From: a virus
Taxonomy: Duplodnaviria; Heunggongvirae; Uroviricota; Caudoviricetes
IMG/VR virus record: IMGVR_UViG_3300037502_002518
Span: 5,712-69,711 of that record
Reading direction: 5' to 3' (one strand)
DNA: 64,000 nt
The notes beneath the pieces are model-generated. The model was not told where the DNA came from. It made no database searches and was given only the letters and a program-made list of their open reading frames with translations. Numbering within the stretch: position 1 is the stretch's first letter; each line of letters opens with the position of its first letter. Positions 14,777 to 52,123 of this stretch are shown here, one piece after another. A program made the translations under genes and the position numbers.

Positions 14777-14801
14777 TGCCAAATAAAAAGTTGGTGTAAT
14801 T

Positions 14802-15881
14802 ATGAGTGATTTGAATGAGATTCTAAAAAGAGTGTATGAAGAAGACAAGATTGAAGAAGTCTTGGTAGCTCTTGAATGTGAGAATATAAACAGAGTATCT
14901 GGTCGATTTGAAGCACAATTGCCAGAGAGATTTCATAGTGGAAATAAACGAGCAGTACAAGTTTATGATACAGAAAAACTTCAAAGTAGAGTTAGAAACA
15001 AAGGTGTTTCTGGAAACTTATTCATGCTTATTGGTTTCATTCTTTATGACATAGATGAATTTGAAGTTCTAAAAGATAATTTATTTCAAGTTAAAGCGTG
15101 GTTGTGTAACTTATTTGATTGGGATGAATATTTAGAATTAGGGTATGATTTCTCTGAAGAAAGAAAAGATTACCTACCATTCTTGTCGGAAATAAGAGAT
15201 AAGAGAAAAAAGAGAAAAAATATTTCAAAATCAACATTAAATAAAAAGAATGAACCAATTGATATAGATGTGCTATACCCCCACTTTGATAAGATGCCAC
15301 ATAAAAGATTTATAGAGGATGGCATCTTGGCAAAGACACAAGTTGAATATGGAGTAATGTTTGACAGAATGACAGAAAGAATTGTATTTCCTATCCATGA
15401 TAAAGATGGAAATGTAGTCAGTGTCAAAGGGAGATATGTGGGAAGTGACTTAATCACTTTAGATGAAAAGAAATATATGTTCTTACATTTTCCTTTTGAT
15501 AAACAGCTTGAATTATTTAATTACCACAAAGCTTATGAACACATACAAAAAATGGGAGAAGTTATTGTTTTTGAATCAGAAAAATCATGTATGTTGGCTT
15601 GGCAGTATGGATTTAAACATACTGTAAGCACGATGGGGTATGAAATATCTCCATATCAGTCATTCCTTTTAAGAAAACTAGGGGTCAATATAATTTATGC
15701 TTATGACAAAGGAATTGATTATGATTTTATTAGAAAACAAGCAAAGATAATAAAAACAAGAAAATGTTTTTATATTGATTCTAATGAATTTGAAGAACTA
15801 GATGACAAAGATGCCCCAGTAGACAAAGGAGTTAAATTATGGAAAAAGATTTACGAACAAGGGATGAAATCTATTACTTAA
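14802..15881 (+). CDS. putative DNA primase (Toprim-like region EVIVFESEKSCML)
   Basis: position immediately after helicase; Toprim-like acidic motif; weak. Confidence 0.45.
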   Translation: MSDLNEILKRVYEEDKIEEVLVALECENINRVSGRFEAQLPERFHSGNKRAVQVYDTEKLQSRVRNKGVSGNLFMLIGFILYDIDEFEVLKDNLFQVKAWLCNLFDWDEYLELGYDFSEERKDYLPFLSEIRDKRKKRKNISKSTLNKKNEPIDIDVLYPHFDKMPHKRFIEDGILAKTQVEYGVMFDRMTERIVFPIHDKDGNVVSVKGRYVGSDLITLDEKKYMFLHFPFDKQLELFNYHKAYEHIQKMGEVIVFESEKSCMLAWQYGFKHTVSTMGYEISPYQSFLLRKLGVNIIYAYDKGIDYDFIRKQAKIIKTRKCFYIDSNEFEELDDKDAPVDKGVKLWKKIYEQGMKSIT

Positions 15882-16519
15882 CTTTAGTTAAAATATTATT
15901 CATTTCATTGTTTGTATTTGCAATTTTGAATGCAATCTTATCTCAAAGAGTTGATAAACTGGAAGAAAAAGAAAGTGAGCTACTGTCCAGTGTGGAAACC
16001 AAAGACTTTCAATTAAAAAATTACAACGATGAACTGAACGATATTTACAGCTCATTTCAAGAAGTCAGTATGGAAAGGGACATTCTTGCCATTGAGAATG
16101 AAGAAATATCAAGAGAGAATGGCAAGCTTCAAGAAGCTATTGACATTGAAACAAAGAGAAAAGAAAGAGAAGCAAAAGCTAAAGAGGAGCTTAAAGCTAG
16201 CGGTTCGTGGAAAAACTTTGAGATGACCCATTATACAGCTAATTGTGAGGGATGCTCTGGTATCACCTATTCTGGTCATGATGCACGTCAATCAATATAT
16301 AAGAATGGAAAACGTGTCATTGCAACAGACCCAAATATCATACCTCAAGGTTCTATTGTTGAGATAAATGATGGAGGATTTGTTTTTAGAGCGCAAGCTT
16401 TAGACATTGGTTCAGCAATAAAGGGTAACATTGTAGACCTATTAGTTGATGGAAATCAAAACGCATTAGCCTTGGGTAGAAAAAATGTAAAAATTAGGGT
16501 GATTAGAAGTGGATGGTAA
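15839..16519 (+). CDS. membrane-anchored 3D-domain protein (N-terminal TM, coiled coil, C-terminal MltA/YuiC-like 3D domain)
   Basis: C-terminal motif block HYTANCEGCSGITYSGHDA...IVDLLVDG typical of 3D (Asp-rich) domains; overlaps primase 3' end by 43 nt. Confidence 0.5.
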   Translation: MEKDLRTRDEIYYLTLVKILFISLFVFAILNAILSQRVDKLEEKESELLSSVETKDFQLKNYNDELNDIYSSFQEVSMERDILAIENEEISRENGKLQEAIDIETKRKEREAKAKEELKASGSWKNFEMTHYTANCEGCSGITYSGHDARQSIYKNGKRVIATDPNIIPQGSIVEINDGGFVFRAQALDIGSAIKGNIVDLLVDGNQNALALGRKNVKIRVIRSGW

Positions 16520-16775
16520 AGAAGAGTTTGGACTCACATTTAAAGATGAATTTGACAAAATACTTACAACCTTAGAAGTTAAGTCAAATAATGGCTCTGA
16601 TGAGGGAAAGTATTTAAGCAATGCAAGAAAGAAAAGAATGTCAAAACCAATATTATTTTCAATTGGTGGTTTTGATGGCTCTTATAAAGCAACTAACTAT
16701 TCCGTTACTGTTGACGAGGCAAAAGAAATTGCCAGAGAGTTAAACAGAATGGTTGAATATTTAGAACAAATATAA
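16509..16775 (+). CDS. hypothetical protein, paralog A
   Basis: similar N- and C-terminal blocks to the next ORF. Confidence 0.45.
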   Translation: MDGKEEFGLTFKDEFDKILTTLEVKSNNGSDEGKYLSNARKKRMSKPILFSIGGFDGSYKATNYSVTVDEAKEIARELNRMVEYLEQI

Positions 16776-16794
16776 AACGAAAGTAGGAGAGAAA

Positions 16795-17052
16795 ATGGAA
16801 TTTATTAAATTTGGTGTAACAGTAGAAGATGAATTAGAAAACAAGGTGTCAGTTGGTTCAAATGTCGATTTAGTTGAGACAGGACTATTGACTAAAAAGT
16901 CAATGGATGATGTAAAATCAGAAGATGTATTTTATGTTCATATCAACAATCAGTTCTCAGATGCTTTAGCAGGACTGTCTGTAGAGGGTGCAAAAGCCTT
17001 AGTTGAAGAATTGAACAAAGGGATTGAATTTGTTGAAAAAGTCAATAAATAG
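16795..17052 (+). CDS. hypothetical protein, paralog B
   Basis: C-terminus LSVEGAKALVEELNKGIEFVEKV vs SVTVDEAKEIARELNRMVEYLEQ in preceding ORF. Confidence 0.45.
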   Translation: MEFIKFGVTVEDELENKVSVGSNVDLVETGLLTKKSMDDVKSEDVFYVHINNQFSDALAGLSVEGAKALVEELNKGIEFVEKVNK

Positions 17053-17326
17053 TATTTTGTTTTCGCTAAAAGAAATATTTAGCCTAGCAGTCATGCCTAT
17101 AGTTTTAATAGCTATAGGTGGACTGATTATGTTTGACAAGATTGACAATGTGGGAAACCACATTGTTGGGTTGTCTTTCATGCTTGTTGGCTATCTCTTT
17201 GCTGTTACTATGACATTAGATAGAAATTTAAGGGAAGCCCAAGAAACAAATGGAATACTGTTTAATGTTATAAAAGAAATGGCAGAGGGAAGCGATAATT
17301 ATAGAATTGAATATAAAGAAAAATAG
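17024..17326 (+). CDS. small membrane protein (two TM helices)
   Basis: hydrophobic segments. Confidence 0.45.
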   Translation: MNLLKKSINSILFSLKEIFSLAVMPIVLIAIGGLIMFDKIDNVGNHIVGLSFMLVGYLFAVTMTLDRNLREAQETNGILFNVIKEMAEGSDNYRIEYKEK

Positions 17327-17341
17327 TTGGGAGATTTTTAT

Positions 17342-19039
17342 ATGAAGTGGGTAAAGAAGAATCCTAAGTTGAACTTTGATAAAGATATGACGATTGTAGA
17401 GAAGTTAGCCAAGATAAACAAGGTGGACAATTTATCTGACTGGATGAATCCATCAAGTAAGTTTGAAAATTCACCACATTTGTTAAAAAATATTGATGAA
17501 GCAACACATCGTATTATGCAAGCTGTAAGAGACAATGAGAAAATAGTTATTGGGAGTGACATCGATTCAGACGGGCTTAACTCTGCATCAATCATGTATA
17601 ACTATTTAAAAAACATTTATGATATTGACAACGTTAGTATTGTTCATGCACAACGTTCTGATGGTCATGGACTTGAAACATTTAAAGATAAAGTTGATGA
17701 TGACACAGGGTTACTAATCATTGTCGATTCATCATCTAACTCAATTGATGCAAGTAAAGAAGTTTCAGAGAAAGGTATTGATATTGTTGTTATTGACCAC
17801 CACGATGTGGATGTTGACAATCCATATGTGACTTTAGTCAACTGTAAGATTGGTGACTATCCTAATCCAAACTTAAGTGGTAGTGCCATGGTCTACAAAG
17901 TTTGTCAAGTTATTGATGAGAAAATTGGAGAAGAGTTTGCAGATGATTTTCTTGACTTGGTAGCAATTGGTTTAATTGGTGATGTGATGAGTGTAAGAGA
18001 GATGGAGAACAGGTATCTGATTAACAAAGGAATTAGCCAAATCAACAATAAAGGGCTTAACATCCTTCTAAAGAAGGCAAAAGTTGATACGTATAGAGGA
18101 ATTAGCTCAACAGATATTAGTTTCAAAATATCGCCAATGATTAGTGCATGTTCGAGGTTTGACAAAATCGAGTTAGCAATTGAGTTGTTAACGACAGAAG
18201 ATGAAGACAGAATGAAAAAGCTATCAAAAGAAATGATTGAGTTGAATGAAAGACGTAAATCAGAACAAAAAGAGATGGTTGAGAGGTTTGCAGAAGGTCT
18301 GGATGATAGCAACAATATTATGATTGTTATTACAGATGAGATTGAGTCTGGATTTAGAGGTTTGATTGCATCAGAAGTTGCAAGCAAGTACAATAAGCCT
18401 GCTTTTGTACTTTACCCAATGAAAGATTCAAATGGGGATGTTTTTGAGTATAGTGGCAGTGCCAGAGGAGTTGGAAGCATTCCGCTTAAAGATTTATGCC
18501 AAGATTCTGGATTGTTTAACTTTGCAACTGGGCATCAACTCGCTTTTGGTCTATCATTTGATGCAGATAAATATGATGAAGTTGTAAAATACTTTAATGA
18601 AGTTCTTGACGATAGTGACTTTGAGAAAGTTATCTACTATGACTTAGAAGTTGATGCAAATGAGCTAGAAGAACTAGATTTAAAGGAAATTGAAAAATTC
18701 TCAAGGATTGTTGGAGAAGGATTCAAAGAGCCTAAGTTTAAGGTGACTGGATTGACTCTTGCAGAGAAGGAAACTAAAAAACTTGGCAGTCATGTGAGAG
18801 CAGTCATGGGTAAAAATAAGGATACAGTAAAAATTATTTGTGAGAATGATTTTGCCCTAATGAAGTTTAGAAGCAATGAGGATTTTGCTAAAGATTTAGA
18901 AGATGAATTTTATGGAGATGCATTCATGGTTGAAGTGGAGGCAGTAGGTAGTTTGAACCTAAATGTATTTTATAATTTTGGTACAAAAGTAACAGAGGTA
19001 ACTAAACAAGTTTTCATTGAAGATTATCGTCTGGTGTAA
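17342..19039 (+). CDS. DHH-family phosphoesterase, RecJ-like ssDNA exonuclease
   Basis: DHH motifs DIDSDGLNS and VIDHHD; RBS TTGGGAG. Confidence 0.65.
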   Translation: MKWVKKNPKLNFDKDMTIVEKLAKINKVDNLSDWMNPSSKFENSPHLLKNIDEATHRIMQAVRDNEKIVIGSDIDSDGLNSASIMYNYLKNIYDIDNVSIVHAQRSDGHGLETFKDKVDDDTGLLIIVDSSSNSIDASKEVSEKGIDIVVIDHHDVDVDNPYVTLVNCKIGDYPNPNLSGSAMVYKVCQVIDEKIGEEFADDFLDLVAIGLIGDVMSVREMENRYLINKGISQINNKGLNILLKKAKVDTYRGISSTDISFKISPMISACSRFDKIELAIELLTTEDEDRMKKLSKEMIELNERRKSEQKEMVERFAEGLDDSNNIMIVITDEIESGFRGLIASEVASKYNKPAFVLYPMKDSNGDVFEYSGSARGVGSIPLKDLCQDSGLFNFATGHQLAFGLSFDADKYDEVVKYFNEVLDDSDFEKVIYYDLEVDANELEELDLKEIEKFSRIVGEGFKEPKFKVTGLTLAEKETKKLGSHVRAVMGKNKDTVKIICENDFALMKFRSNEDFAKDLEDEFYGDAFMVEVEAVGSLNLNVFYNFGTKVTEVTKQVFIEDYRLV

Positions 19040-19071
19040 CTTAATAAATTAATTTTACAAAGTTATAGATG

Positions 19072-19101
19072 TTGACCAAATGCCAAATAAAATGTTATAA
19101 T
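19072..19101 (+). promoter_or_regulatory. promoter TTGACC-18bp-TATAAT with TGCCAAATAAAA motif in the spacer
   Basis: seen in sequence; precedes nrd cluster. Confidence 0.55.
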
Positions 19102-19179
19102 AATAAGTACACTCGACACTGCAACTACATATTGTGGTGTCGAGTTGTAAATAAATACAATATATAGGAGGATGGTAAA

Positions 19180-19425
19180 ATGGTAAAGGTTTTTACAAAA
19201 TACGGTTGTCCACAATGTGAGATGACAAAAAAGGTTTTGGATGAAAATGGAGTTGAATATGAGCTGTTTAATGTAGAAGACAATGAGGAAGACTTACACT
19301 ATGTGAAAGAGGTGTTGGGGTACTCGTCTATGCCAGTGGTCGAAATTCGAGATGGAGAAGATGGTTTCAATGAGGCTTTCTCTGGGTTTAGACCCGATAA
19401 ACTAATGTCGTTGAGTTGTAAATAA
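19180..19425 (+). CDS. nrdH: NrdH-type glutaredoxin-like redoxin
   Basis: CPQC active site near N-terminus, 81 aa, precedes nrdI-nrdE. Confidence 0.8.
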   Translation: MVKVFTKYGCPQCEMTKKVLDENGVEYELFNVEDNEEDLHYVKEVLGYSSMPVVEIRDGEDGFNEAFSGFRPDKLMSLSCK

Positions 19426-19426
19426 A

Positions 19427-19798
19427 ATGCTTCTTTTATATATGAGTTTGACTGGGAACGTGAGAGAGTTTGTTGAAAAAACAGGCTTGAAAAATAGAGA
19501 GATAGAGCCTACAAATCCATTCTTTGAAGTTAATGAGGACTTTGTAATTGTAGTTCCATCATATGAAGGATATATAAATGAAGAAGTTGAAGACTTTTTA
19601 TCATATAAAGACAATTCAAAGTTTTTGAGAGGTTTTGCATCAAGTGGAAATTTGAATTTTGATGAACTATTTTGTGTGAATGCAAAGCAGTTGTCAAAGA
19701 AGCTCAATAAACCTCTTTTTTTTAAGTTTGAATATAGTGGTACAGACAGAGATGTTAATTTGTTTTTAGAAAGGTTGGGAGAAATTGAAAAAGGTTGA
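19427..19798 (+). CDS. nrdI: NrdI flavodoxin-like protein
   Basis: N-terminal [13 protein letters not shown] (flavin-binding loop), size, position. Confidence 0.75.
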
Positions 19799-25597: not shown

Positions 25598-26863
25598 GTT
25601 ATTGTGCAAATCCCTTTCGTCTCCATTTCATTTGGTTTAGACACGTCAAAATGGGGCAGAATCATTTCTAAGAAAATGTTGGAAATACGTGAACGTGGTA
25701 TAGGAAGAGACAGGATTTCAGCGGTGTTCCCGAAGCAAATTATGTTTATTCGTAGTGAAATCAACAAAAATGAAGACAGTCCAAATCATGACATTTATTT
25801 AAAAGCAATTGAATGTAGCAGAAAACGTTTGTATCCAGATTATTTAAGCTTAGACTCACCAGAGACGAATAATCTTGCAGAGATTTATGAACGCTCTGGA
25901 CAGGCAGTGATAGCAATGGGATGTAGAGCGTATTTAAGCCCTTATGAATATGAGGGTAAAGAGATTTACAACGGTCGTTTTAACATTGGAGCAGTCAGTT
26001 TAAACTTACCTAAAATGGCAATTGAAGCGAATGGCAACAAAAGTAAGTTTTTAAAATTGATTGATAAATATTCTGAAATGGTTTTTGAAATTCATGAAGA
26101 TTATTACCAAAGACTTTCACAGGTAAAGGCTTCAAGTAACCCACTTCTATTTATGGAAGGTGGCTCATTTAAAAAGCTAAAGGCAGATGAAACAATTGAA
26201 GAGTTACTAAAAGGAGCAACAGCATCATTAGGATACGTTGGTGTTGAAGAAGCAATGGTTGCATTAACTGGGGAAGGAATTACAAAGAATAAAGATTTCT
26301 CCATTGAGACAGTGCAAAGGCTAAAAGATAATGTCAATAAAGCATCAAACAAATACAATAGACTTGGGGCTTTGTACAGTACCCCCGCAGAAAATATTAT
26401 CTACCGTTTTAATAATATTAATCGTGAACAATATGGAGAAATTGACGGTGTAACAACGAGAGAATACATGACAAATTCTTTTCATGTCCCTGTTTTTGAA
26501 GATGTTTCAGTATTAGAGAAGATTGATTTTGAGTCGAACTTTCACTCTATCGCAACAGGTGGAAGAATTTCATATTGTGAGTTCCCTTACAATGTAGATT
26601 CAAAGATTTTAAAACAAGCCATTGATTTTGCAATGGAAAAAGGTTTATACTATGGTGTCAATGTTATTTCAGCAACATGTAATGATTGTTCTCACTCTGG
26701 TGATTTTGAGGATTGCCCAGAATGTGGTTCAGACAATGTGACATCAGTTTCTCGTGTATGTGGATATTTAAGTTTTGGAAAAATTAAAGGGGATTCACGA
26801 TATAACCTTGGTAAGCAAGCAGAGGTAAGAGAAAGAGTAAAACACACATTTGGAGGTTGCTAA
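25598..26863 (+). CDS. nrdD: NrdD exon 3 (glycyl-radical domain, RVCGYL motif, C-terminal Zn site CNDCSHSG...CPECG)
   Basis: glycyl radical motif SRVCGYLS. Confidence 0.75.
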   Translation, partial: VIVQIPFVSISFGLDTSKWGRIISKKMLEIRERGIGRDRISAVFPKQIMFIRSEINKNEDSPNHDIYLKAIECSRKRLYPDYLSLDSPETNNLAEIYERSGQAVIAMGCRAYLSPYEYEGKEIYNGRFNIGAVSLNLPKMAIEANGNKSKFLKLIDKYSEMVFEIHEDYYQRLSQVKASSNPLLFMEGGSFKKLKADETIEELLKGATASLGYVGVEEAMVALTGEGITKNKDFSIETVQRLKDNVNKASNKYNRLGALYSTPAENIIYRFNNINREQYGEIDGVTTREYMTNSFHVPVFEDVSVLEKIDFESNFHSIATGGRISYCEFPYNVDSKILKQAIDFAMEKGLYYGVNVISATCNDCSHSGDFEDCPECGSDNVTSVSRVCGYLSFGKIKGDSRYNLGKQAEVRERVKHTFGGC

Positions 26864-27379
26864 ATGGCTAGAATTCACCAACTGAAAGATGTAGATATGG
26901 ACAATGGTTACTGGGGCTTTTGCACATCAATATGGTTTAATGGTTGTGTTCATGAGTGCAAGGGGTGTTGGAATAGTGAAACATGGGCTGTCAATGACAG
27001 CCTCTATGTTCCTAATGAAGAGATAATTGAAAAAACTGTAGAATATCTTGATAACTACTTTCCAAAAGACTTGAGTATACTTGGGGGAGACCCACTAGCA
27101 CCTTTCAATGTGGATGACACATATGAAATATTGAGTGGAATATTAGAAAAGCGACCACAGACAAGAGTTGTATGTTGGACAGGATACATTTACGAAGCTT
27201 TAATTAAGCATGGATGGGCAGATAAAATTCTTCCAATGATTGATATTTTAATTGATGGTAGATATATTGAGAAGTTGCATGTTGAAGGAAAACCATATGG
27301 CTCTAGTAATCAAAGGATTATAAGATTAAAAGATTCACTAAAAAAAGGGAAGATTATACTCGATGAACAAAAAACATGA
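26864..27379 (+). CDS. nrdG: anaerobic RNR activating enzyme NrdG (radical SAM)
   Basis: CxxxCxxC-like cluster GCVHECKGCWN; coupled to nrdD stop. Confidence 0.75.
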   Translation: MARIHQLKDVDMDNGYWGFCTSIWFNGCVHECKGCWNSETWAVNDSLYVPNEEIIEKTVEYLDNYFPKDLSILGGDPLAPFNVDDTYEILSGILEKRPQTRVVCWTGYIYEALIKHGWADKILPMIDILIDGRYIEKLHVEGKPYGSSNQRIIRLKDSLKKGKIILDEQKT

Positions 27380-27814: not shown

Positions 27815-27829
27815 ATACTAAATAAAATA

Positions 27830-28332: not shown

Positions 28333-28524
28333 ATGAATATTCCAGAAAACGTGAAGAAGTATGCAAGCTATAACATGCATCTTGAATCAGATATGCTTTT
28401 AGAAATTATTAAAAAAAGAAGATTGAATATGGCATATCGAATGACTGACGAAGAAAAGTGGATTGTACAAAACAAAGAGTCTTTTGTAAAATATTTCAAT
28501 AGTGAAAAAGGAGATTCTCAATGA
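28333..28524 (+). CDS. hypothetical protein (63 aa)
   Basis: RBS GAGGTGAGAGCATG. Confidence 0.45.
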   Translation: MNIPENVKKYASYNMHLESDMLLEIIKKRRLNMAYRMTDEEKWIVQNKESFVKYFNSEKGDSQ

Positions 28525-30764
28525 GAAAACTAGTTGTCTTACGTGGCGCTCCTGCCTCTGGAAAAAGCACATTCGTTAAAAACCACAACTTGGAAGACTA
28601 TACAATTAGTACGGACGACATTAGATTACTCTATGGTAGTCCAATAATTGGAGAAGATGGAAATACGTCAATATCTCAAAAAAACAACAAGCAAGTTTTT
28701 GAGTTGATGTTTGATGTTTTAGAACATAGAATGTTGAATGGTGAATTTATTGTTGTTGATGCCACTCACTGCAATAAAAAAGACTTTAACAAGTACAAGT
28801 CATTGGCTAAGTTGCATCGTTACAGAGTTTATGTGGTGGATTTTAACAGAACCTTAGAAGAGTTAAAAGAAAATAACGAAAAGAGAAAATTTACATCTAA
28901 GTTTGTTCCCGAGCATGTAATCGAAAAAATGCACTTTAAACAACAATCTTGGGAGATTCCAAGCTGGGCAAATGTAATAAAGGAAGAAGATTTCCACGAG
29001 TCCATCATTGGAAGTAAGAGATTCAACTATAACAATTGGGAGGAAATTCACCATATTGGGGATATACATGGTTGTTATGATACACTTATGAATTTTGTTG
29101 GTGAATTTTTAAATCCAGAACACCTCTATATCTTTACTGGGGATTTATTTGACAGAGGAGAACAAAATAAGGAAGTTTTAAACTTTATGTTGAACAACTA
29201 TTACAAGGACAATGTTGTTTTTATCGAAGGAAATCATGATACTCCAATGAACTACTATGCTAACAACAGACCAGATTTAATTAAGAATAGAGTGTTCAAA
29301 GAGAGTACAATCCCTCAAATTGAAGAAGGGCTGTCCGACAAAGAGATTGTTGAAATGAAAAGGAAAATTAGACATGCAATGAGACACTTTAAAGATTATG
29401 TTCATTACACTTTTGGAGATGACGATGGAGATAACGTAAAAGTTTTTGTCTCACATGGAGGACTTTCTAACAACCCAATGGTATCAATGTCCATGATTCC
29501 CTCTGTTCAATTCATTAGAGGTGTTGGAGATTACAGTTTAGATATTGACAAGAATTGGTCAGAAAGTAATTCAAACATTTTGCAGATACATGGTCATCGA
29601 AATACTTTTGAACACCCTATTGTGGCAGGAAAGAAATCTGTCAATTTAGAGGGTGGTGTCGAATCTGGTGGAGATTTGCGAGTATACACACTATATAAGA
29701 ACGAGCATGGTCTTGTTTTTCAATATTGTGAAGAATACGATAGCCAAGTAGAATCAAAAAACGAGGTAAAAACAGATGAAGAAAATCTAGTTGATAAAAT
29801 GAGAAACAACAATTTTATTCAAGAAAAACAACTGGGTGACAACATCAGCTCTTTTAATTTTACTAGAAAGGCATTTAAAAAAGGTGTTTGGAATGACTTG
29901 ACAGTAAAGGCAAGAGGATTATTTATAAACACCCACTGTAATGAGATTGTGGCAAGGGGTTACGACAAGTTTTTCAATATAAATGAGGTTGAGTCTACAA
30001 AAGAGGAAAACCTAAAAAGAGGTTTAAAATTTCCTGTTCGTGTATATGAAAAACCAAATGGATACCTTGGTCTTCTTGGATATAATAGTGAAAAAGATGA
30101 GCTTGTATTTGCATCAAAATCACAAACGAATAGTCCTCATGCAAAATGGTTTAAAGAATTATTTTACAAAAAAACAACAGAAATGTCACGATATTATATT
30201 AAGAATTATTTAAAAGAGCATAATTCATCTTTAACGTTTGAAGTAATTTCATTTAATGACCCACACATCATAGAGTATTCAGAAGAGGATATAATCTTAC
30301 TCGATATTATTAAACGTGATATTGATTTTAGCAAAGAGCCTTATGGAAAAGCGGATGGAGATTATAGTTTGTCTGAATCTGTAACAACTCTTGCAGGTAT
30401 TATGGGTTGGAATTGTAAAAAATTACTTGCTATCTTTGGTAGTTATGAACAGTATCATAGTTGGTACAAAAGAGAAATGACCCAAACAACTAAGAAAATT
30501 GAGGGATATGTCATTGAAGACAGCAAAGGGTTTATGTTTAAAATTAAGATGCCATACTATAATTTTTGGAAGCAGATTAGGACAGCAAAAGATATGTATG
30601 CAAAAGGAAATTTGAATATAGATTCACTATATGAAAGAACTCATAATAGACTTGCTACAAAATGGATTATCAATGAATTTGAGAACATAAACAAAGAAGA
30701 ACTGAAGTCAATGTCAATTATTGATTTTAGAAACTATTTTAAAGAGAAAGAAGGAACATTTTAA
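28521..30764 (+). CDS. tri-domain polynucleotide kinase-phosphatase with C-terminal RNA/DNA ligase-like nucleotidyltransferase domain (Pnkp-like RNA repair enzyme)
   Basis: N-terminal P-loop GAPASGKST; calcineurin-type phosphoesterase GDIHGCYDTL, GDLFDRG, GNHD; nucleotidyltransferase motif I KPNGYLGL in C-terminal third. Confidence 0.6.
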   Translation: MRKLVVLRGAPASGKSTFVKNHNLEDYTISTDDIRLLYGSPIIGEDGNTSISQKNNKQVFELMFDVLEHRMLNGEFIVVDATHCNKKDFNKYKSLAKLHRYRVYVVDFNRTLEELKENNEKRKFTSKFVPEHVIEKMHFKQQSWEIPSWANVIKEEDFHESIIGSKRFNYNNWEEIHHIGDIHGCYDTLMNFVGEFLNPEHLYIFTGDLFDRGEQNKEVLNFMLNNYYKDNVVFIEGNHDTPMNYYANNRPDLIKNRVFKESTIPQIEEGLSDKEIVEMKRKIRHAMRHFKDYVHYTFGDDDGDNVKVFVSHGGLSNNPMVSMSMIPSVQFIRGVGDYSLDIDKNWSESNSNILQIHGHRNTFEHPIVAGKKSVNLEGGVESGGDLRVYTLYKNEHGLVFQYCEEYDSQVESKNEVKTDEENLVDKMRNNNFIQEKQLGDNISSFNFTRKAFKKGVWNDLTVKARGLFINTHCNEIVARGYDKFFNINEVESTKEENLKRGLKFPVRVYEKPNGYLGLLGYNSEKDELVFASKSQTNSPHAKWFKELFYKKTTEMSRYYIKNYLKEHNSSLTFEVISFNDPHIIEYSEEDIILLDIIKRDIDFSKEPYGKADGDYSLSESVTTLAGIMGWNCKKLLAIFGSYEQYHSWYKREMTQTTKKIEGYVIEDSKGFMFKIKMPYYNFWKQIRTAKDMYAKGNLNIDSLYERTHNRLATKWIINEFENINKEELKSMSIIDFRNYFKEKEGTF

Positions 30765-33212: not shown

Positions 33213-33241
33213 TTGACACCTGCCAAAATAAATAGTATGAT
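33213..33241 (+). promoter_or_regulatory. promoter TTGACA-17bp-TATGAT with TGCCAAAATAAA in spacer
   Basis: seen in sequence. Confidence 0.55.
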
Positions 33242-42835: not shown

Positions 42836-42858
42836 ATGTGTGATTTTGTAAATAAAAG

Positions 42859-44196
42859 ATGGATTTTATTTCGTTGGTAGAAAATGGAGAAAAAGGAGAG
42901 GTTATTTTGAATTTAAACAAAAATGAACTAGAAGCTATTATGATTTTAGATGAGATTAAAAGCACATCATCAAGAAATGACAAAGAGACAATCTTAAAAG
43001 AGCATCAACATCATCAAGAATTTAGACAGATGATTGAATTCTTGCTAGACGATTCAATCACAACAGGTATCAAAACAAAGAAGTTGTCAAAATTTATTGA
43101 CAAGTCAGAAAAAGAAAATGGCATGGGAGGTATTCTTGAAGTTATAGACTACCTAAGAGTTAATAATACAGGTAGTGATAATGACGTTATAGTCGTTACA
43201 AGCTTCCTTCAAGATTTAGAAGATGACTATGACAACCTACAAGAGACCTTATCTCAATTGTTTTGCAAACAGCTTAAAATTGGAGTCACTGTTAAAACTT
43301 TAAATAAAGTATATGGCAAAGGCACTGTCAAAAAGATTGAAGTCATGCTTGCTAAAAAATATGAGGAAGACAAACATAACCTTGACAGCTTTACTTTGAC
43401 AACAAAGCTTGATGGAATCCGATGCATTGCTTTAAAGTTGGACAGTGGTGATGTAAAATTCTTTACACGTCAAGGAAAGCCAATTTTAGGTCTAACAGAA
43501 TTGGAAACGAGTTATGAAATTATGCCAAATGGTTACGCTTATGATGGTGAACTATTACTGAATGAAGACCTACCAAGCGATGAACTCTTCAGAAAGACAC
43601 AAAAGGTTGTCCGTAAAGATGGAGAGAAAAAGAATGTTAAGCACATTCTTTTTGATATGATTCCATTGGTAGAATTTGAAGCTGGTGAATCCACACTAGA
43701 TTATGAAAGTCGAAGAACAATTTTAGAAGCAATGTTTACAGAAGAAAACATTGAAGTAACACCAGTTCTGTATTCTGGCAGTGACAAATCAATGATTGAT
43801 TTTTACCTTAGAGAAGCAGTCCTTGACCAGAAAGAAGGTATTATGATTAACAAAAATGATGGTCTTTACAAAACAAAACGTACAGACGACTTGCTAAAGG
43901 TTAAAGTGTTCCATACGGTTGATTTAGAAATAACTGGATATGGAGAAGGTGAGGGGAAATACAGGGACATGCTAGGTTATCTTGTTGTTGACTACAAAGG
44001 AAACCCTTTACGTGTTGGCTCTGGACTGTCTGATGAAGAGCGTATAATTCTCTTCCGATATGCAGATGAATTAGTTGGAAGAATTGTTGAAGTGTCCTAC
44101 TTTGAGGAATCACAGAATGAAGATGGCAAGTTATCATTGAGATTTCCTGTATTTAAAGGGTTTAGAGATGACAAAGATGAGCCAAGTCATAACTAA
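42859..44196 (+). CDS. ATP-dependent DNA ligase
   Basis: adenylation motif I KLDGIRC (KxDG), size 445 aa, OB-fold C-terminus. Confidence 0.7.
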   Translation: MDFISLVENGEKGEVILNLNKNELEAIMILDEIKSTSSRNDKETILKEHQHHQEFRQMIEFLLDDSITTGIKTKKLSKFIDKSEKENGMGGILEVIDYLRVNNTGSDNDVIVVTSFLQDLEDDYDNLQETLSQLFCKQLKIGVTVKTLNKVYGKGTVKKIEVMLAKKYEEDKHNLDSFTLTTKLDGIRCIALKLDSGDVKFFTRQGKPILGLTELETSYEIMPNGYAYDGELLLNEDLPSDELFRKTQKVVRKDGEKKNVKHILFDMIPLVEFEAGESTLDYESRRTILEAMFTEENIEVTPVLYSGSDKSMIDFYLREAVLDQKEGIMINKNDGLYKTKRTDDLLKVKVFHTVDLEITGYGEGEGKYRDMLGYLVVDYKGNPLRVGSGLSDEERIILFRYADELVGRIVEVSYFEESQNEDGKLSLRFPVFKGFRDDKDEPSHN

Positions 44197-44239
44197 TACA
44201 AGTTTCAAATAAAATTTTTAATAAATGCCAAATAAAAGG

Positions 44240-44268
44240 TTGACTTTTGTTTGGCATTTCGCTATACT
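44240..44268 (+). promoter_or_regulatory. promoter TTGACT-17bp-TATACT preceded by TGCCAAATAAAA (44226-44237), which forms a near-perfect dyad with TTTTGTTTGGCA (44246-44257)
   Basis: seen in sequence. Confidence 0.55.
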
Positions 44269-45567: not shown

Positions 45568-45570
45568 TTT

Positions 45571-47201: not shown

Positions 47202-47204
47202 TGT

Positions 47205-47990
47205 ATGTCTAAAATTCAAGAAGCTTACATTGGAGCTATAGGAACAATGCTTATCCTGTCTCATAATATGGTCGATATTGATGACTCAGAAGTTGATAAG
47301 CTTATGTTGGGACTAAGAAAATCTTTTAAAGAAGATGAAAAAGAAGCCTTAAACTTTACAAAGAAAATGTTTAACACCTATATGGAAGAAATTAACAACT
47401 ATAACACAGAGAAAGATAGCACATCAAACAAAAAAGAAAAAACAGTGCCAAATAAAAAGCCTTCAGTCGGTAAAGAAGTTCACATATGGACTGACGGAAG
47501 CTCAATAAACAATGGCAAAGATGTTGGAGCAGGTGGATGTGGATATGTCATGTTGTTTGGTGATTTTAGAGATATTGACATAGAGACAGAATATGCTGAT
47601 GAAAGTAATGTTGTAACAGGCTATCATGCATCAAAAGAGACTACTAACCAAAGAGAAGAGATTAAAGCTGTAATCTATGGGCTTCAAAAAGTTAAGACAA
47701 ACAAATATCCAATTAAAGTTATGTCTGACAGTGCTTACCTTGTCAATTGTATGAATGATGGTTGGTACAAAAAATGGAAGAAGAATGGTTGGAAAAACTC
47801 TAAGGGTCAAGGTGTTGCAAACAAAGACCTTTGGGAAGATTTGCTTAACATTATAAAAGAGAAGAAACTATCAAGTAAGCTTGAATTTGTAAAAGTAAAG
47901 GGACATAACAAAATCTTTTACAATGAACTTGCTGATGAGATGGCTGGTAAAGCATTAAAAGAATCACGAGAGAATATGAATAAGGAGTGA
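47205..47990 (+). CDS. ribonuclease H (RNase HI-like) with N-terminal extension
   Basis: HIWTDGS...E...D..Y..N core. Confidence 0.6.
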   Translation: MSKIQEAYIGAIGTMLILSHNMVDIDDSEVDKLMLGLRKSFKEDEKEALNFTKKMFNTYMEEINNYNTEKDSTSNKKEKTVPNKKPSVGKEVHIWTDGSSINNGKDVGAGGCGYVMLFGDFRDIDIETEYADESNVVTGYHASKETTNQREEIKAVIYGLQKVKTNKYPIKVMSDSAYLVNCMNDGWYKKWKKNGWKNSKGQGVANKDLWEDLLNIIKEKKLSSKLEFVKVKGHNKIFYNELADEMAGKALKESRENMNKE

Positions 47991-47994
47991 GTTA

Positions 47995-48435
47995 ATGCAT
48001 TATAGTATTGTAAGATTTTACAATGGTAGACTTGCACTCAATCATAGCTGTGAGTTTTGTGAGAACATCCCCTTAGAAAATGTTGATGAACCATGTTTTA
48101 ACTGTGGGATTTCTCAAAGTGAACTTGCTCAAGTTGAAGGTATGATTACAAAAGTAAATAGATATATCGACTTAGCCCAAAAGTTTGATATTCATGGCTT
48201 GCAAGAGTCAGATTACCACAATAAGCCTGTTGAGTTTCAAGCAAGATTAACCAACTTAAGGCTTGGTGATGTAGATGATGTTAAATTTGTTGATGAATAT
48301 CATACAGGGGAACTCAGAGAGCTTAACAAGGTTGCAGGTCAACCATGCCATGTAGTTGTGTACCCACAATATGTCAATAACACTTACGAAGAATACGATG
48401 ATGAGGAGTGGCTTCAAGATGACAGTGAATGGTGA
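47995..48435 (+). CDS. hypothetical protein with CxxC...CxxC
   Basis: ORF. Confidence 0.45.
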   Translation: MHYSIVRFYNGRLALNHSCEFCENIPLENVDEPCFNCGISQSELAQVEGMITKVNRYIDLAQKFDIHGLQESDYHNKPVEFQARLTNLRLGDVDDVKFVDEYHTGELRELNKVAGQPCHVVVYPQYVNNTYEEYDDEEWLQDDSEW

Positions 48436-48451
48436 TGAGAAAGTTTTAGTC

Positions 48452-48742
48452 ATGTCGGAAACGGAATTAGAAGATGGTGTAAGCATTGTATCTTATGAAA
48501 TATTGTTGCAAAAAGACTTAGAGTTACTACAAACACTAATCAAACGTGAGTTCACATTTGAATACACTTTAGGTAAATCAAAATATGTTATCACCCTAGA
48601 TGAAGATGATTTTAAAGTTCTTGGTGATTGTGAAGTTGTAGATAACTTTATAAAATTATTTAATAAAGATTGGATTGGAAATGAAAGATGGTCAGAGATT
48701 GTGTTCTCTGAATATGATAGAATAGAATATATTGGAGAGTAA
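48452..48742 (+). CDS. hypothetical protein (start uncertain; track ORF 48356-48742)
   Basis: ORF. Confidence 0.35.
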   Translation: MSETELEDGVSIVSYEILLQKDLELLQTLIKREFTFEYTLGKSKYVITLDEDDFKVLGDCEVVDNFIKLFNKDWIGNERWSEIVFSEYDRIEYIGE

Positions 48743-48757
48743 AACTCCCCAGAAAGG

Positions 48758-49324
48758 TTGTTTAATTATATGTTAAAAGGTTATTTGGCAAGTCCACTGT
48801 TTACAATTGGAGAACGTTATTTGAATGAAGAGATTGCAAAAATTTTACGAGGAAGTATTAAAGATTTAGAGTTACATGTTCCACAAGAGAATGAAAACAT
48901 TAACGACAAGACACAACATGCTTCATCAATGGAGGTTGCTGAAGCGGATTTAAAACCATTGTCTGATTCTAATTTTGTTATTGCAGTTCTCGATGGAAGT
49001 GAAATCGACTCTGGTGTAAGTGCAGAGATTGGTGTGGCACATGCACTTGGAATCCCAGTAATTGCTTTATTTTCTGACATTCGTCAAGAGGGCAATAAAA
49101 ACAAAGATAAAATTCAAGCATTAGTTTATGACTCAACAGAATCAAGCTTTGCATACAGAAACTTGTTTACCATTGGTCTGATAAAACTTGGCAATGGCAT
49201 CATTGTAAAAACTCTAGAAGAGCTTGAATATGCTGTACGACTTATGTTTGAAGCAAATGAATATGCAGATGATATTAAAGAGTATATTGAAACAAAGAGA
49301 GTGATTCTAAATGAAGAAAAATGA
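48758..49324 (+). CDS. nucleoside 2-deoxyribosyltransferase
   Basis: GYLASPLFT...LDGSEIDSGVSAEIGVAHALGIPVIAL matches the NDT family core. Confidence 0.6.
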   Translation: MFNYMLKGYLASPLFTIGERYLNEEIAKILRGSIKDLELHVPQENENINDKTQHASSMEVAEADLKPLSDSNFVIAVLDGSEIDSGVSAEIGVAHALGIPVIALFSDIRQEGNKNKDKIQALVYDSTESSFAYRNLFTIGLIKLGNGIIVKTLEELEYAVRLMFEANEYADDIKEYIETKRVILNEEK

Positions 49325-49943
49325 AGAGATTGAGATGGAGTTTTTAAAGAAATTAAACAAAATTAGAGGCACAATGTCTGATAGTGACCTCTTGAATAAC
49401 TTGAGTGCTATTCAAGAAATGAATTGGGACAGTGACTACTCTATCTTGAATAACATCTCTCATTCACGACTAGAAAAAATCCTCAATGGTGAGTATGAGA
49501 TTGCAGGGTCAAAATTTAAACGAGATGACTGGGTTACAGTTGAATGGTCTGATTTTGAACACACTACACACAAAGTAAATTCTTGTGTGAATGAACTTGT
49601 TTCAATCAATTTAGCTTACCATTCTGGTGTGTCTAACCATTTACCCCCTGCAGATATTGTAAGATATGCAACAAGTGAAGAAATTAAACAAGAGAAATCT
49701 AGAGCTTTTTGGTATCAGATTGGAAGAAAACCATATGAATATAAAGTCGGTGATATTGTTAAATATAAAGGGTATATTCGTATAGTTAAAGAAGTGAAAA
49801 CGGGTGGTCATGGGAATACAGACCTCATTTTGTCTGAGAGTAATGAAAAACACAATTTTTCATATCACATTGAGAATGTATACTCTGATGATTTAAAGAT
49901 TGTTTCTACAGCAGAAAGACGTTTGGATTGGGAGGAGAAATAA
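49311..49943 (+). CDS. hypothetical protein (210 aa)
   Basis: ORF. Confidence 0.45.
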   Translation: MKKNEEIEMEFLKKLNKIRGTMSDSDLLNNLSAIQEMNWDSDYSILNNISHSRLEKILNGEYEIAGSKFKRDDWVTVEWSDFEHTTHKVNSCVNELVSINLAYHSGVSNHLPPADIVRYATSEEIKQEKSRAFWYQIGRKPYEYKVGDIVKYKGYIRIVKEVKTGGHGNTDLILSESNEKHNFSYHIENVYSDDLKIVSTAERRLDWEEK

Positions 49944-50002
49944 TGGCTAAATTAATATTTAGATATGGAAGTATGAATTCTGCAAAGTCAGCAAATTTAA
50001 TT
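49943..50002 (+). CDS. tdk: thymidine kinase, 5' fragment/exon (MAKLIFRYGSMNSAKSANLI; P-loop), boundary approximate
   Basis: TK N-terminal P-loop read directly; ATG overlaps upstream stop (TAATG); frame terminates 12 codons later. Confidence 0.6.
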
Positions 50003-51517
50003 ATCTCCCGAAAGAAGTCGCCCTCTTCAAGCGTGTAAAAGGCGCATTCAGACGGTAAGGGGGGAGATGAATTTAGGTCAAGCGGTAGATTAAAACTATC
50101 TTTCAATACTTTTTGTGTCAGTTCATAAATTGTACCAGAAAAGCTATTGATATAATTTTTTATTTGACACTTATCAATCACTTCTACTAAGATATTTGGG
50201 AATTCGATTAACTTGGGAACTATTTCCACTGATGTTCTCATCTAATTAGTATATACTAAGAATATGACAAAGGAGGTGACATATAAAATGTTAAAAGCCT
50301 ACAAATATCGACTATATCCAACCGAAAGTCAGAAAGAGTATTTTTCCAATTGTTTTGGTTGCGCTCGATTCATTTACAACAAAATGCTCAGCGACAAAAT
50401 CGACCACTATAAAGAAAACAAGAAAATGCTTTATACCACGCCTGCTAAGTACAAGAAAGAGTTCCCGTTTTTGAAAGAGGTGGACAGTCTAGCATTGGCA
50501 AATGCTAGACAAAATCTGGAAAGAGCTTATAAAAACTTTTTCCGAGACACGTCCGTCGGTTTTCCAAAGTTCAAATCCAAGCACAAGTCGAAATCGAGCT
50601 ACACCACTAACAATCAAGGTGGAAACATTCGTATAGAATACGGAAAAATCAAACTTCCGAAAATCGGATTCGTAAAACTGAAGCAACATAGAATGTTTGA
50701 TGGGGTTATCAAATCTTGTACGATTTCTATGAATAAGTCAGAAAAGTATTTCATTTCTATTCTAGTAAAATCAGAAGAGAAAGAAATGGAAATCACCGAA
50801 AGAAAAATTGGGATTGATTTAGGTATTTCTGATTTTGCGATTACCACGAACGATTTAGGAGAATCCGTTAAATATGATAACCCAAAGTATTTATATAAAT
50901 CAGAAAAGAAACTAAAAAAATACCAACGTTCTTTGTCTCGCAAACAAAAAGGCGGAAAAAACCGCAATAAAGCTCGTATTTAAGTCGCCAAAAAACACGA
51001 AAAGATTGCCAATCAAAGGAAGGACTTCTTGCACAAACTAACTAAACAGATTACGGACGAAAACCAAGTCATCGTAATCGAAACGCTGTCCAGTAAGAAC
51101 CTGATGAAGAACCACAAACTGGCAAAAAGCATTGGTGATGTCAGTTGGTTTGAATTCGTCCGTCAACTTGAATATAAAGCGGAACAAAAAGGTCGTACAA
51201 TTATCAAAGCGGACAGATTCTATCCATCCAGTCAGATTTGTTCCGCCTGTGGACATCGAGATGGAAAAAAAGGCATTGCATATACGAGAATGGGATTGTC
51301 CTAGTTGTGGTGAACACCTTGACCGAGACATCAATGCCAGTAAGAACCTCTTGGCATTAGCCAAGTAAAAGAAAACATATGAGGCAGGGACTGCCTTTTG
51401 AGCCTACCCCATATCCGATTCCTCTGTCTACATGACATTCGTGCAGACAAGAATGGAGTTAGTAGGAAGCCCCACTTTAAAATTTTAAGAATTTAAGTAG
51501 TGGGCAGTTCACTCATG
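50003..51517 (+). mobile_element. IS200/IS605-family (IS1341-like, tnpB-only) element or IStron-like intron inserted in tdk (boundaries approximate)
   Basis: 1.5-kb insert between tdk halves: 260-nt 5' non-coding, TnpB ORF, 150-nt 3' hairpin-rich non-coding; no TnpA. Confidence 0.6.
50264..51368 (+). pseudogene. tnpB: tnpB (OrfB, RuvC-like RNA-guided nuclease family) disrupted by an in-frame TAA (50981-50983) and a frameshift at an A7 run (51265-51271)
   Basis: N-terminal YKYRLYPT; RuvC-I GIDLGI, RuvC-II VIVIETL, zinc finger CSACGH...CPSCG, Ruv[13 protein letters not shown]. Confidence 0.75.
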
Positions 51518-52027
51518 CAACATTACAACTATGAAAGCGGTGGAAAAAACACATTAGTTTTCAAACCATCTGTTGATACAAGAAGTGACAAAGTAACATC
51601 TCGTGCTTTATATACCGAGATAGAAACAGATTATATTGTTGGACAGAAGGAATATAACTCAATGTTGCCTATTGTCTTACATCATATGCCTAGAGTTGTA
51701 TTTGTTGATGAATCCCACTTCTTAGACAAGCAACAGATTGAAGAATTAGCTATCATAGTTGACAAAATTGGTGTAACCGTCCAAGCTTTTGGTCTTATGA
51801 CAAACTTTAAAGGAGAACTCTTTGAAGGAAGTAAAAGACTTGTTGAATTATCAGATGTTGTAGAAAGGGTTCGTTCTGAGTGTACAGAGTGTTCTAATGA
51901 GGGAATTATGAATGCAAGATATATTGGTGGCAAACTACAGACAGATGGAGATACAGTTATGATTGGTGCTGAAGAAAAGTACAAAGTCTTATGTAGACGT
52001 TGCTACATGAAAGCTATGCAAGAATAA
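51518..52027 (+). CDS. tdk: thymidine kinase, 3' fragment/exon (...YNYESGGKNTLVFKP ... C-terminal zinc ribbon CTECS...CRRC), boundary approximate
   Basis: TK core and C-terminal Zn ribbon. Confidence 0.6.
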   Translation, partial: QHYNYESGGKNTLVFKPSVDTRSDKVTSRALYTEIETDYIVGQKEYNSMLPIVLHHMPRVVFVDESHFLDKQQIEELAIIVDKIGVTVQAFGLMTNFKGELFEGSKRLVELSDVVERVRSECTECSNEGIMNARYIGGKLQTDGDTVMIGAEEKYKVLCRRCYMKAMQE

Positions 52028-52031
52028 ATTA

Positions 52032-52075
52032 AAAGGTAAAGTTTGTGAGATAATCATAGACTTTACCTTTTTGTT
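52032..52075 (+). terminator. terminator hairpin AAAGGTAAAG...CTTTACCTTT (19-nt loop) plus TTTTTGTT
   Basis: seen in sequence after tdk. Confidence 0.55.
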
Positions 52076-52076
52076 A

Positions 52077-52085
52077 TGGTATAAT
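52077..52085 (+). promoter_or_regulatory. extended -10 promoter TGgTATAAT followed by TGCCAAATAAAA (52093-52104)
   Basis: seen in sequence upstream of polymerase. Confidence 0.45.
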
Positions 52086-52123
52086 GTAATTGTGCCAAAT
52101 AAAATACTAAGGAGGAATTATTA

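Follow-up and report, generated by a model that had tools for sequence, protein, structure and literature searches.

A recurrent 12-mer before replication and nucleotide-metabolism operons of an uncultured siphovirus: candidate operators of an MrpR-like repressor

The stretch analysed here, referred to throughout as the window, comprises 64,000 nucleotides (nt) of the IMG/VR virus record IMGVR_UViG_3300037502_002518 (Caudoviricetes; positions 5,712 to 69,711 of that record), and it raises a question of function: what is served by a 12-mer, TGCCAAATAAAA, hereafter the box, that recurs upstream of its replication and nucleotide-metabolism operons? A first-pass annotation had listed four exact copies and proposed an activator or middle-gene regulator box, comparable with the MotA boxes of phage T4. 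On the analogy of the prophage SPbeta and of phi3T, we consider it likely that the copies are the operator sites through which an MrpR-like protein, encoded in the same window at 7609-8568, represses these operons. The box and its predicted reader are best explained as a new operator sequence and a new member of the system known from SPbeta and phi3T.

Recurrence, placement and predicted reader of the box

By frequency, TGCCAAATAAAA is the top 12-mer of the window and its most over-represented oligomer, an asymmetric, A-tract-rich word co-oriented with transcription. Five exact copies are present, all five on the plus strand, against 0.03 expected from dinucleotide shuffles of the window, a count of five being reached in 0 of 100 shuffles. 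Allowing up to one mismatch gave 12 matches versus 1.5 expected, and up to two mismatches 39 versus 20.5, about half of this last set being noise. Four of the five exact copies lie between genes, although by our own gene calls only 9.1% of the window is intergenic (binomial P = 3e-4), and a Markov-1 model restricted to intergenic DNA gives an expectation of 0.004 copies. The sequences around the individual copies are mutually unrelated. The recurrence is real, and chance is excluded as its source. The four copies of the first-pass annotation (14777, 19081, 44226 and 52093) all lie where it had placed them, its total being one short, as the copy at 47446-47457 had been missed; nor is the word spread evenly over coding DNA and both strands.

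The genes 3' of the boxes encode a DnaG-type primase, an NrdH glutaredoxin followed by NrdI, a dUTPase and a DnaE-type polymerase (Table 1). Relative to the promoter, the box may occupy the spacer, lie 5' of the -35 element, coincide approximately with +1 (as at 52093, for the DnaE polymerase transcript) or stand without any promoter (none was recognisable at 14777), and its distance to the -10 element is not fixed. In the nrdH-operon promoter, the -10 is preceded by TGt (TTGACC...TGtTATAAT). At the dut promoter, the exact copy and its inverted partner form a dyad with 12-nt arms and 7-nt separation, extendable to 16 pairs; the extended dyad (44223-44259), folded as a single strand, reaches -19.6 kcal/mol (z -7.0) with the -35 hexamer in the loop. 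The box at 12519 starts 17 nt after the -10 of a promoter-like site at 12474-12502 (TTGACA-17-TACAAT). These placements bear out what had been proposed for the nrdH spacer, the dut dyad, the downstream operons and the variable position; the site at 33221 does lie in a promoter spacer, but the supposed one-base variant is a one-base register shift, equal to two Hamming mismatches.

Seen along the window, the boxes follow the repressor gene. Positions 1-7600 form a box-free early region with strong sigma-A promoters, at the distal end of which the mrpR-like gene is located behind a box-free promoter of its own, and no box was found 5' of 9140 in the window, nor in a further 2.4 kb upstream covered by the locus L037. 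Among the credible intergenic sigma-A promoters 3' of the repressor gene, those at 12474, 19072, 33213, 44240 and 52057 carry a box, as perhaps does 27830 with its two-mismatch copy, the exception being 27409.

The product of 7609-8568 scores above the Pfam gathering thresholds for both MrpR_N_CB (70 bits) and MrpR_C_cat (62.7 bits), and reaches only 17 bits against the ordinary Phage_integrase model, for which the cut-off is 27. The PDB entries 8BJV, 8BJ6 and 8A0A (YopR/MrpR) match it over the full length (E ~1e-25), and 9RD5, annotated only as a core-binding-domain protein, matches with an E value of 3e-23; 9RD5/9RGL may represent the phi3T SroF co-crystal. By tblastn, the gene shows 27% identity to SPbeta yopR (E 9e-25), and the NCBI label for homologues of its product is 'phage lytic cycle repressor MrpR family protein'. 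The downstream neighbour of the gene was considered as a DNA-mimic antirepressor; it is not acidic, and hence this role is unsupported.

Comparison with SPbeta, phi3T and metagenomic relatives

MrpR is the master repressor of the Bacillus subtilis prophage SPbeta (Kohm et al. 2023, PMC10516654) and is no longer functional as a recombinase (PMC10516654). In electrophoretic mobility shift assays it shifts DNA of SPBRE, the element repeated in SPbeta (Lazarevic et al. 1999, as cited in PMC10516654), and PaimR and PyosX reporters are repressed about 5-fold (PMC10516654). As derived here from the SPbeta genome, SPBRE reads (TAG)ACAAATACAAAWAATATGTATATA(AT), and words taken from it are the most frequent 12-mers, and among the most frequent 11-mers, in SPbeta. 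The element occupies the spacer between TAGACA and TATAAT at yorE, yorM, yorZ, yosX and yonP, lies just 5' of TTGACT at aimR, and is found directly 5' of the ribosome-binding site at yopM, yopV and one yonX copy. The window shares with SPbeta a homologous integrase-fold repressor and a top 12-mer that is asymmetric, A/T-rich and gene-co-oriented, placed in spacers, beside the -35 or before ribosome-binding sites, 5' of replication and nucleotide-metabolism operons. The arrangement at 19081 is that of SPBRE in the yosX, yorE, yorM, yorZ and yonP promoters; the architecture of the promoters at 19072 and 33213 equals that of PyosX, and that at 44240 equals PaimR, both being SPbeta promoters shown to be repressed. 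SPBRE overlaps the -35 in SPbeta, whereas the window box begins 2-3 nt after it.

The phi3T protein SroF recognises an asymmetric box of 26 bp, CAGTAATTTTATTTTTATTCTTAATG, to which it binds as a monomer (Chmielowska et al. 2025, bioRxiv 10.1101/2025.11.27.690993), and in the SroF-phi3T co-crystal 24 of the 26 bp are read, with the AAAAATAAAA core contacted by both domains (bioRxiv 10.1101/2025.11.27.690993). On the coding strand this box reads AAGAATAAAAATAAAATTACT; it is the most frequent 11-13-mer of the phi3T genome (18-20 copies; about 20-28 copies of the box), nearly all copies being co-oriented with the genes and many lying against a TTGAC -35 or a ribosome-binding site. The window resembles phi3T in its A-tract core (AAAAATAAAA in phi3T, AAATAAAA in the window), in a single asymmetric site, compatible with binding as a monomer, and in residues T22 and Y26 of the core-binding domain, which read the A-tract in SroF and are kept in the window protein. 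The two differ in the reading residues of the catalytic domain, where K233, F234, H237, R238, Q300 and K304 of phi3T are H, Y, Y, N, W and D in the window, and in the ~12 bp conserved among the window copies versus the 24 bp read in phi3T.

Relatives were collected through a search for homologous proteins and the contigs that encode them (loci numbered with the prefix L). The exact 12-mer was present in 0 of the 36 loci examined first, and hence repeated words were searched genome by genome. In Brevibacillus phage Sundance and in ~10 metagenomic relatives, the top repeat is a variant of the box (GCCAAATAAAGTA and others), recurring at syntenic positions; the form (A/G)TGCCAAATAAAGTA is common to L032, L042, L050, L051 and L054. 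Sundance boxes include one directly 5' of the primase gene and one at the guanylate-kinase/yorH junction, equivalent to 14777 and 12519 of the window; the Sundance and window words have GCCAAATAAA in common at the same gene junctions but differ in that the Sundance box bears a conserved GTA(CT) 3' extension and an A for T before GCC. Of eight phages, six have a box past the yorF-like stop codon and seven have one past the sak4-like stop codon, the latter having been lost in the window, and in neither case is the flanking sequence conserved. Past stop codons, many boxes directly precede a terminator-like hairpin or lie within its loop. Boxes against the -35, as at 44226, were also found in phi3T, Sundance, L042, L051 and SPbeta aimR. 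In L030 and L031, the boxes are gene-co-oriented on both strands and end 3 nt before the -10 or just before the ribosome-binding site. The locus L032 has a near-identical counterpart of the 33213 promoter, with TTGACAagTGCCAAATAAAtagTATGAT, and in that locus a separate RNase H gene has its GTG start overlapped by the counterpart of the 47446 box, so the window copy would stand at an ancestral gene boundary. The sister strain L041, whose MrpR is identical, has the exact TGCCAAATAAAA in place of the window's one-mismatch copy at 10248, and the tentative copy at 27816 resembles the ACTAAATAAAGTACT box class of L070. As far as we found, the box is undescribed for Sundance or its relatives in the literature located; in the 2016 paper on the Sundance genome, the motif described is another one, present in Jenst and SecTim467 and stated to be absent from Sundance (PMC4909266).

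The MrpR homologues were aligned to phi3T SroF, the base-contacting positions being taken from the crystal structure. Across ~12 phages, four box classes pair with four variants of the alpha-13 reading dipeptide (residues 233/234), and T22 and Y26, the A-tract readers of the phi3T core-binding helix, are kept throughout, as is the AAATAAA core. Both phi3T (KF..HR) and SPbeta (KF..TN) have boxes of their own. Compared with its clade, the window protein has N for K/R in the alpha-18-equivalent helix and T for V at position 25, and the window box is without the GTA 3' extension of the clade. The L030/L031 box class, TGCTTAAATAAATAG, was left out of the pairing, no MrpR sequence having been retrieved. 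The pairing is suggestive of box and reader evolving together.

Table 1. Boxes, predicted reader gene and its promoter in the window, followed by boxes of relatives and the box classes paired with reading residues; locations are window positions unless a phage or locus is named.
Feature	Location	Strand	Context
Promoter TTGACT-17-TATCAT, sigma-A-like, box-free	7524-7552	+	5' of mrpR-like gene
MrpR/YopR/SroF-family integrase-fold repressor gene (319 amino acids, aa), predicted box reader	7609-8568	+	Pfam, PDB and tblastn matches
Box variant TGCCAATTAAAA	9140-9151	+	Intergenic, 5' of yorF-like gene; syntenic box in relatives; same sequence in sister strains L037-L041
Box variant TGCTAAATAAAA	10248-10259	+	11 nt past yorF-like stop codon, directly 5' of GC-rich hairpin
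Box variant AGCCAAATAAAA	12519-12530	+	Guanylate-kinase/yorH-like junction; Sundance AAAGCCAAATAAAGTA at same junction
Exact box	14777-14788	+	Between helicase stop codon and primase ribosome-binding site, 13 nt 5' of primase ATG
One-mismatch copy TGCCACATAAAA, doubtful member	15295-15306	+	Within primase coding sequence
Exact box	19081-19092	+	Inside 18-nt spacer of nrdH-operon promoter (TTGACC 19072-19077, TATAAT 19096-19101)
Two-mismatch copy TACTAAATAAAA, tentative member	27816-27827	+	Against -35 of promoter 27830
Register-shifted box TGCCAAAATAAA	33221-33232	+	In 17-nt spacer of TTGACA (33213)/TATGAT, 5' of small-ORF (open reading frame) cluster
Exact box	44226-44237	+	Ends 2 nt 5' of -35 TTGACT (44240-44245) of dut-operon promoter
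Inverted one-mismatch copy TGCCAAACAAAA	44245-44256	-	Fills start of dut-promoter spacer
Exact box	47446-47457	+	In ORF 47205-47990, at boundary of 80-aa N-terminal extension and RNase H domain
Exact box	52093-52104	+	Begins 8 nt past -10 of TAGACT-17-TATAAT (52057-52085), 19 nt before TTG start
Box AAAGCCAAATAAAGTA, 12 copies in 49 kb	Sundance (NC_028749)	coding, all copies	Closest cultured relative; MrpR 41% identical
Box AAGTGCCAAATAAARTA	L042-L044		MrpR 50%
Box AGTGCCAAATAAAGTA	L050		MrpR 46%
Box (A/G)TGCCAAATAAAGTA	L051		Phage-sized contig, Paenibacillus odorifer assembly; MrpR 40%
Box TGCTAAATAAAGTA	L049		MrpR 42%
Box (A/G)TGCCAAATAAAG	L054		MrpR 42%
Box AGTGCCAAATAAA	L032		Polymerase 66%
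Box ATGCTTAAATAAATAG, 7-8 copies in 23 kb	L030, L031		Polymerase 57-59%
Box class GCYAAATAAA	8 phages including window		Residues 233/234 H-Y
Box class GCCAAAGAAAG	L055		Residues 233/234 Y-Y
Box class GCCGAAGAAAG	L067		Residues 233/234 H-H
Box class ACWAAATAAAGTACT	L056, L070		Residues 233/234 F-Y

Proposed operators of an MrpR-like repressor and competing explanations

Repression through the box by the MrpR-like protein is favoured because the repressor gene lies in the same window, because the experimentally defined operators of SPbeta and phi3T are likewise the top repeated words of their genomes, and because the placement of the box matches theirs, in spacers, against the -35, before ribosome-binding sites or shortly past stop codons, in co-orientation. 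It is further favoured because the box is conserved at syntenic sites and covaries with the reading residues, and because no box lies 5' of the repressor gene. The variable position, read earlier as a sign of an activator, is therefore normal behaviour for an MrpR or SroF operator.

A number of observations weigh against this assignment. Identity of the window protein to MrpR and SroF amounts to only 25-29% (25% in the comparison with SPbeta MrpR), and the operators diverge as well: TGCCAAATAAAA and (TAG)ACAAATACAAAWAATATGTATATA of SPbeta have only CAAATA..AAA in common, and relative to phi3T only the A-tract core is shared, the flanks being AGAAT...TTACT in phi3T versus TGCC... in the window. 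Parts of the arbitrium-type switch (sroA-F operon, AimR/AimP/AimX, Sar under LexA) are missing, in that SroE (YopQ), SroD (YopP), AimR, the antirepressor Sar (phi3T_99), YopS, YonO, YosL and SprA, with phi3T and SPbeta queries, gave no significant tblastn match in the 64-kb window; the SPbeta yopM-Q operon and AimP are likewise without a homologue there, and no LexA box (CGAACN4GTTCG, at most one mismatch) was found in it. Pfam scans of ~30 of the ~110 window ORFs, which were not exhaustive, revealed no true integrase. The MrpR homologues of L057-L063 have H-Y and the same reading residues, and no box was identified in these loci. The covariation involves few lineages, related phages sharing both traits by descent, and is at most suggestive. 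Finally, strict co-orientation and the boxes by or in terminator hairpin loops would also fit a transcription- or RNA-linked role, and other DNA-binding proteins encoded in the window, such as the XRE-type helix-turn-helix (HTH) protein at 3754-4014, could read the box.

In T4, MotA boxes stand in place of the -35, their spacing to the -10 being fixed at 11-13 bp, and have a positive effect together with AsiA. The window box resembles them as a short recurrent word close to the promoters of genes for replication and nucleotide metabolism, functions typical of the middle class; its distance from the promoter varies, and the L030/L031 variant TGCTTAAATAAA is superficially like the MotA-box core TGCTT. 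Unlike MotA boxes, it accompanies an intact -35, at variable distance, on the core promoter or far from any promoter. The promoters that bear it have near-consensus -35 (TTGACC, TTGACA, TTGACT, TAGACT) and -10 elements that need no activator, and its positions in the spacer, against the -35 or over +1 are those of a repressor, being neither at -40 to -70 nor in place of the -35; many copies in the window and its relatives are without a -10 downstream or any promoter. No MotA- or AsiA-like protein appeared in the same non-exhaustive Pfam scans of ~30 ORFs, and the homologous SPbeta elements are bound by a repressor, with reporters repressed (PMC10516654). The first-pass interpretation thus holds for a protein-binding regulatory box distinct from the core promoter elements and finds no support for its activator or MotA type, given the intact -35 and the lack of fixed spacing; that the box binds a phage activator of middle genes is, in our estimate, very improbable.

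We also regard as very improbable a role at the RNA level or in the course of transcription, with the box as a signal for processing, translation control, termination or antitermination. Such a role would account for the co-orientation of well-supported copies everywhere, save for inverted dyad partners (44245 here and one in Sundance), for the many copies that end 10-25 nt before a ribosome-binding site or lie by terminator-like hairpins past stop codons, directly before them or in their loop, and for the good single-stranded folding of the dyad at 44223-44259. Copies in spacers or before the -35 (19081, 33221 and 44226, with many in L030, L031 and Sundance) nevertheless lie outside the transcript of the adjacent promoter, and for the phi3T box, whose distribution and orientation bias are the same, the crystal shows binding as double-stranded DNA (bioRxiv 10.1101/2025.11.27.690993). 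An Rfam scan of the window, moreover, yielded only two group I introns and no family matching the box. Little probability likewise attaches to an operator of a different protein, encoded by the phage or by the host, for which the HTH_3 (XRE-type HTH) protein at 3754-4014, homologous to SPbeta YonR, is one candidate. XRE-type HTH dimers usually read short palindromes, whereas all boxes but one are single asymmetric sites; the box accompanies the MrpR gene across ~12 phages and its variants change with those of the MrpR reading helix, and a single conserved host site fits poorly with a box that differs among related phages. That the repeat arose by chance or from base composition in AT-rich intergenic DNA, or as a by-product of duplicated promoter cassettes, has a negligible probability: the genome has 33% G+C, AAATAAAA is common in it and about half of the two-mismatch matches are expected, but the exact copies far exceed expectation in the window and in its intergenic DNA, their flanks are unrelated, and the box is kept at syntenic sites in distant relatives.

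If the copies are operators of the MrpR-like protein, one repressor monomer would wrap each box, as SPbeta MrpR and phi3T SroF suggest, with the N-terminal core-binding domain reading the A-tract core and the degenerate catalytic domain reading the flanks. Boxes in the spacer (19081, 33221), against the -35 (44226 with its inverted partner) and over the start (52093, 12519) would block the host sigma-A RNA polymerase, and the intergenic boxes at 9140, 10248, 14777 and 47446 probably halt read-through transcription or aid higher-order binding. The net effect would be to keep the replication and nucleotide-metabolism operons 3' of the repressor gene silent, most plausibly in lysogeny or in a carrier state. 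It is from the analogy that we infer binding of the box by the protein, the negative sign of its effect and the life-cycle context. For Sundance, which bears a ParA-like gene, a temperate nature has been proposed from this very 'integrase' (PMC4909266). MrpR homologues occur on phage-sized contigs within bacterial-isolate assemblies, which would fit a plasmid-like prophage.

There is a small, though appreciable, chance that in the Sundance-like lineage, whose available DNA shows no arbitrium, Sar or LexA control, the repressor acts beyond promoter occlusion in lysogeny. It might serve as a polar roadblock or termination helper that splits a long co-directional transcription unit into separately silenced blocks, or it might be a temporal regulator in a non-integrating life cycle, whether of a plasmid-prophage or a lytic phage. 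A core site of a tyrosine recombinase consists of two inverted 11-13-bp arms around a 6-8-bp spacer, served by an active recombinase, and the dut-promoter dyad (12-nt arms, 7-nt spacer) could be a relic, or a working synapsis site, of recombinase ancestry. One such dyad (44226-44256) was found, the other boxes being single; the protein matches the MrpR models, not the active-integrase model.

The analysis proposes a function for the most repeated word of an uncultured phage genome and ties it to the gene 7609-8568. It suggests that the integrase-fold repressor system of SPbeta and phi3T, whose characterisation dates only from 2023-2025, is present, together with recognisable operators, in a broader set of large siphoviruses, among them Brevibacillus phage Sundance, Paenibacillus-associated elements and metagenomic phages. 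The box variants paired with HY, YY, HH and FY offer a start for a recognition code of monomeric, DNA-encircling repressors, and the boxes may be a practical predictor of the repressed regulon in new genomes. For specialists in SPbeta-like phages the result is an ordinary one, useful in that it carries the system into a broader clade and supplies natural box and reader variants.

The phage genome and other recurrent elements

From gene content and gene order, we identify the window as part of an uncultured large siphovirus with a replication module related to that of SPbeta. Homologues of SPbeta YopR, YonR, YorI, YorJ, YorK, YorL and NrdI/E/F were detected by tblastn, and the module is syntenic with Sundance in the common order mrpR-like, yorF-like, sak4, guanylate kinase, yorH-like, helicase, primase, RecJ, NrdI/E/F, ligase and dut. 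No near deposited phage emerged from a megablast search of window positions 43-56 kb against INPHARED, which gave only weak thymidylate-synthase matches; the window polymerase had no match in viral contigs, and genome contigs yielded only cellular DnaE at ~30% identity. The same MrpR protein is encoded on Joint Genome Institute (JGI) and other metagenome contigs, the longest of 117 kb; the 117-kb JGI contig Ga0310129_0000135 shares only part of its length with the window. No tRNAs were found in the window.

Several genes of the module are interrupted or rearranged. The two group I introns (Rfam RF00028; 20507-20801 and 21256-21493, 52.5 and 84 bits) interrupt the nrdE region, and the nrdE/nrdF region, from 19785 to ~25300, is broken into several ORF pieces, as are bnrdE/bnrdF of SPbeta. 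The anaerobic ribonucleotide reductase NrdD at 25604-27379 is without the first ~154 Pfam profile positions, possibly split, and is followed by the activase NrdG and, further downstream, by a three-domain kinase-phosphatase-RNA ligase (Pnkp-like, 747 aa; region 28521-30764). The DnaE-type polymerase at 52124-55939 has 1271 aa versus ~1100-1180 aa in its closest relatives, its best local alignment covering ~58% of the length, and some other polymerase homologues bear intein or Hint domains; the window polymerase probably contains an intein-like insertion. Just 5' of its promoter, a TnpB/IS605 OrfB-type fragment (50288-50983, with ORF fragments up to 52027), comprising HTH_OrfB_IS605 and an N-terminal portion of OrfB_IS605, has the appearance of an insertion that has decayed.

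The neighbourhood of the MrpR homologues differs among relatives. A GmrSD_N (DUF262) protein of 450-540 aa is encoded directly 5' of the homologue in L042, L043, L044, L049, L050 and L051; the gene is present in every relative with gene calls and absent from the window. The top k-mers of L057, L062, L063 and L064 were rejected as boxes, as they represent tandem or dispersed repeats. Near the respective MrpR homologue in these more distant relatives, L064 has ~22-bp iterons (TTTTATGCACGATACTGTCCC, 5915-6070), L057 has ~55-bp tandem units (5921-6040), and L062 has a conserved element, at least 40 nt long, dispersed in four copies (14489-18830); these may be origins or other elements and are not MrpR-type boxes.

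Six strong early sigma-A promoters each possess a unique long inverted repeat of their own with 12-22-nt arms, five of them in the window (14-56, 663-707, 1335-1384, 3476-3521 and 5915-5964) and one more at L037 444. The repeats bracket or include the -10, which lies in the loop, with predicted folds of -19 to -26 kcal/mol (z -5 to -9), and the dut-promoter dyad, with its -35 in the loop, forms a loose parallel. No such repeats were found at promoters 3' of the repressor gene or in Sundance, L030, L042, L049, L050 and L051, and one promoter of L031, at 3495, has a similar inverted-repeat score (z -5.2). They may represent sites at which read-through RNA is processed in the manner of RNase III, or promoters prone to form cruciforms.

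A second recurrent word, TTGTAAATAAA(A), is present in six copies on the plus strand and two on the minus strand, at 4751-4780, 42847-42875 and 62389 (minus strand), and also at 639, 4010, 19146 and 19417. Three copies form AT-only hairpins (TGTAAATAAAA-N5/6-TTTTATTTA) and others overlap stop codons. The word was considered as a second box class and, with most copies of one or the other kind, was not counted; phi3T has a comparable separate motif, TCTAAATAAAA-N6-TTTTA. In the early region of L051 (799-6310), six promoter-like elements of the form (C)GTGTGATTTC...N...ATATAACTATA each lie just 5' of a ribosome-binding site. This is a different, undescribed type of early promoter in a relative, and its ATATAACTATA word is common to L067 and L051.

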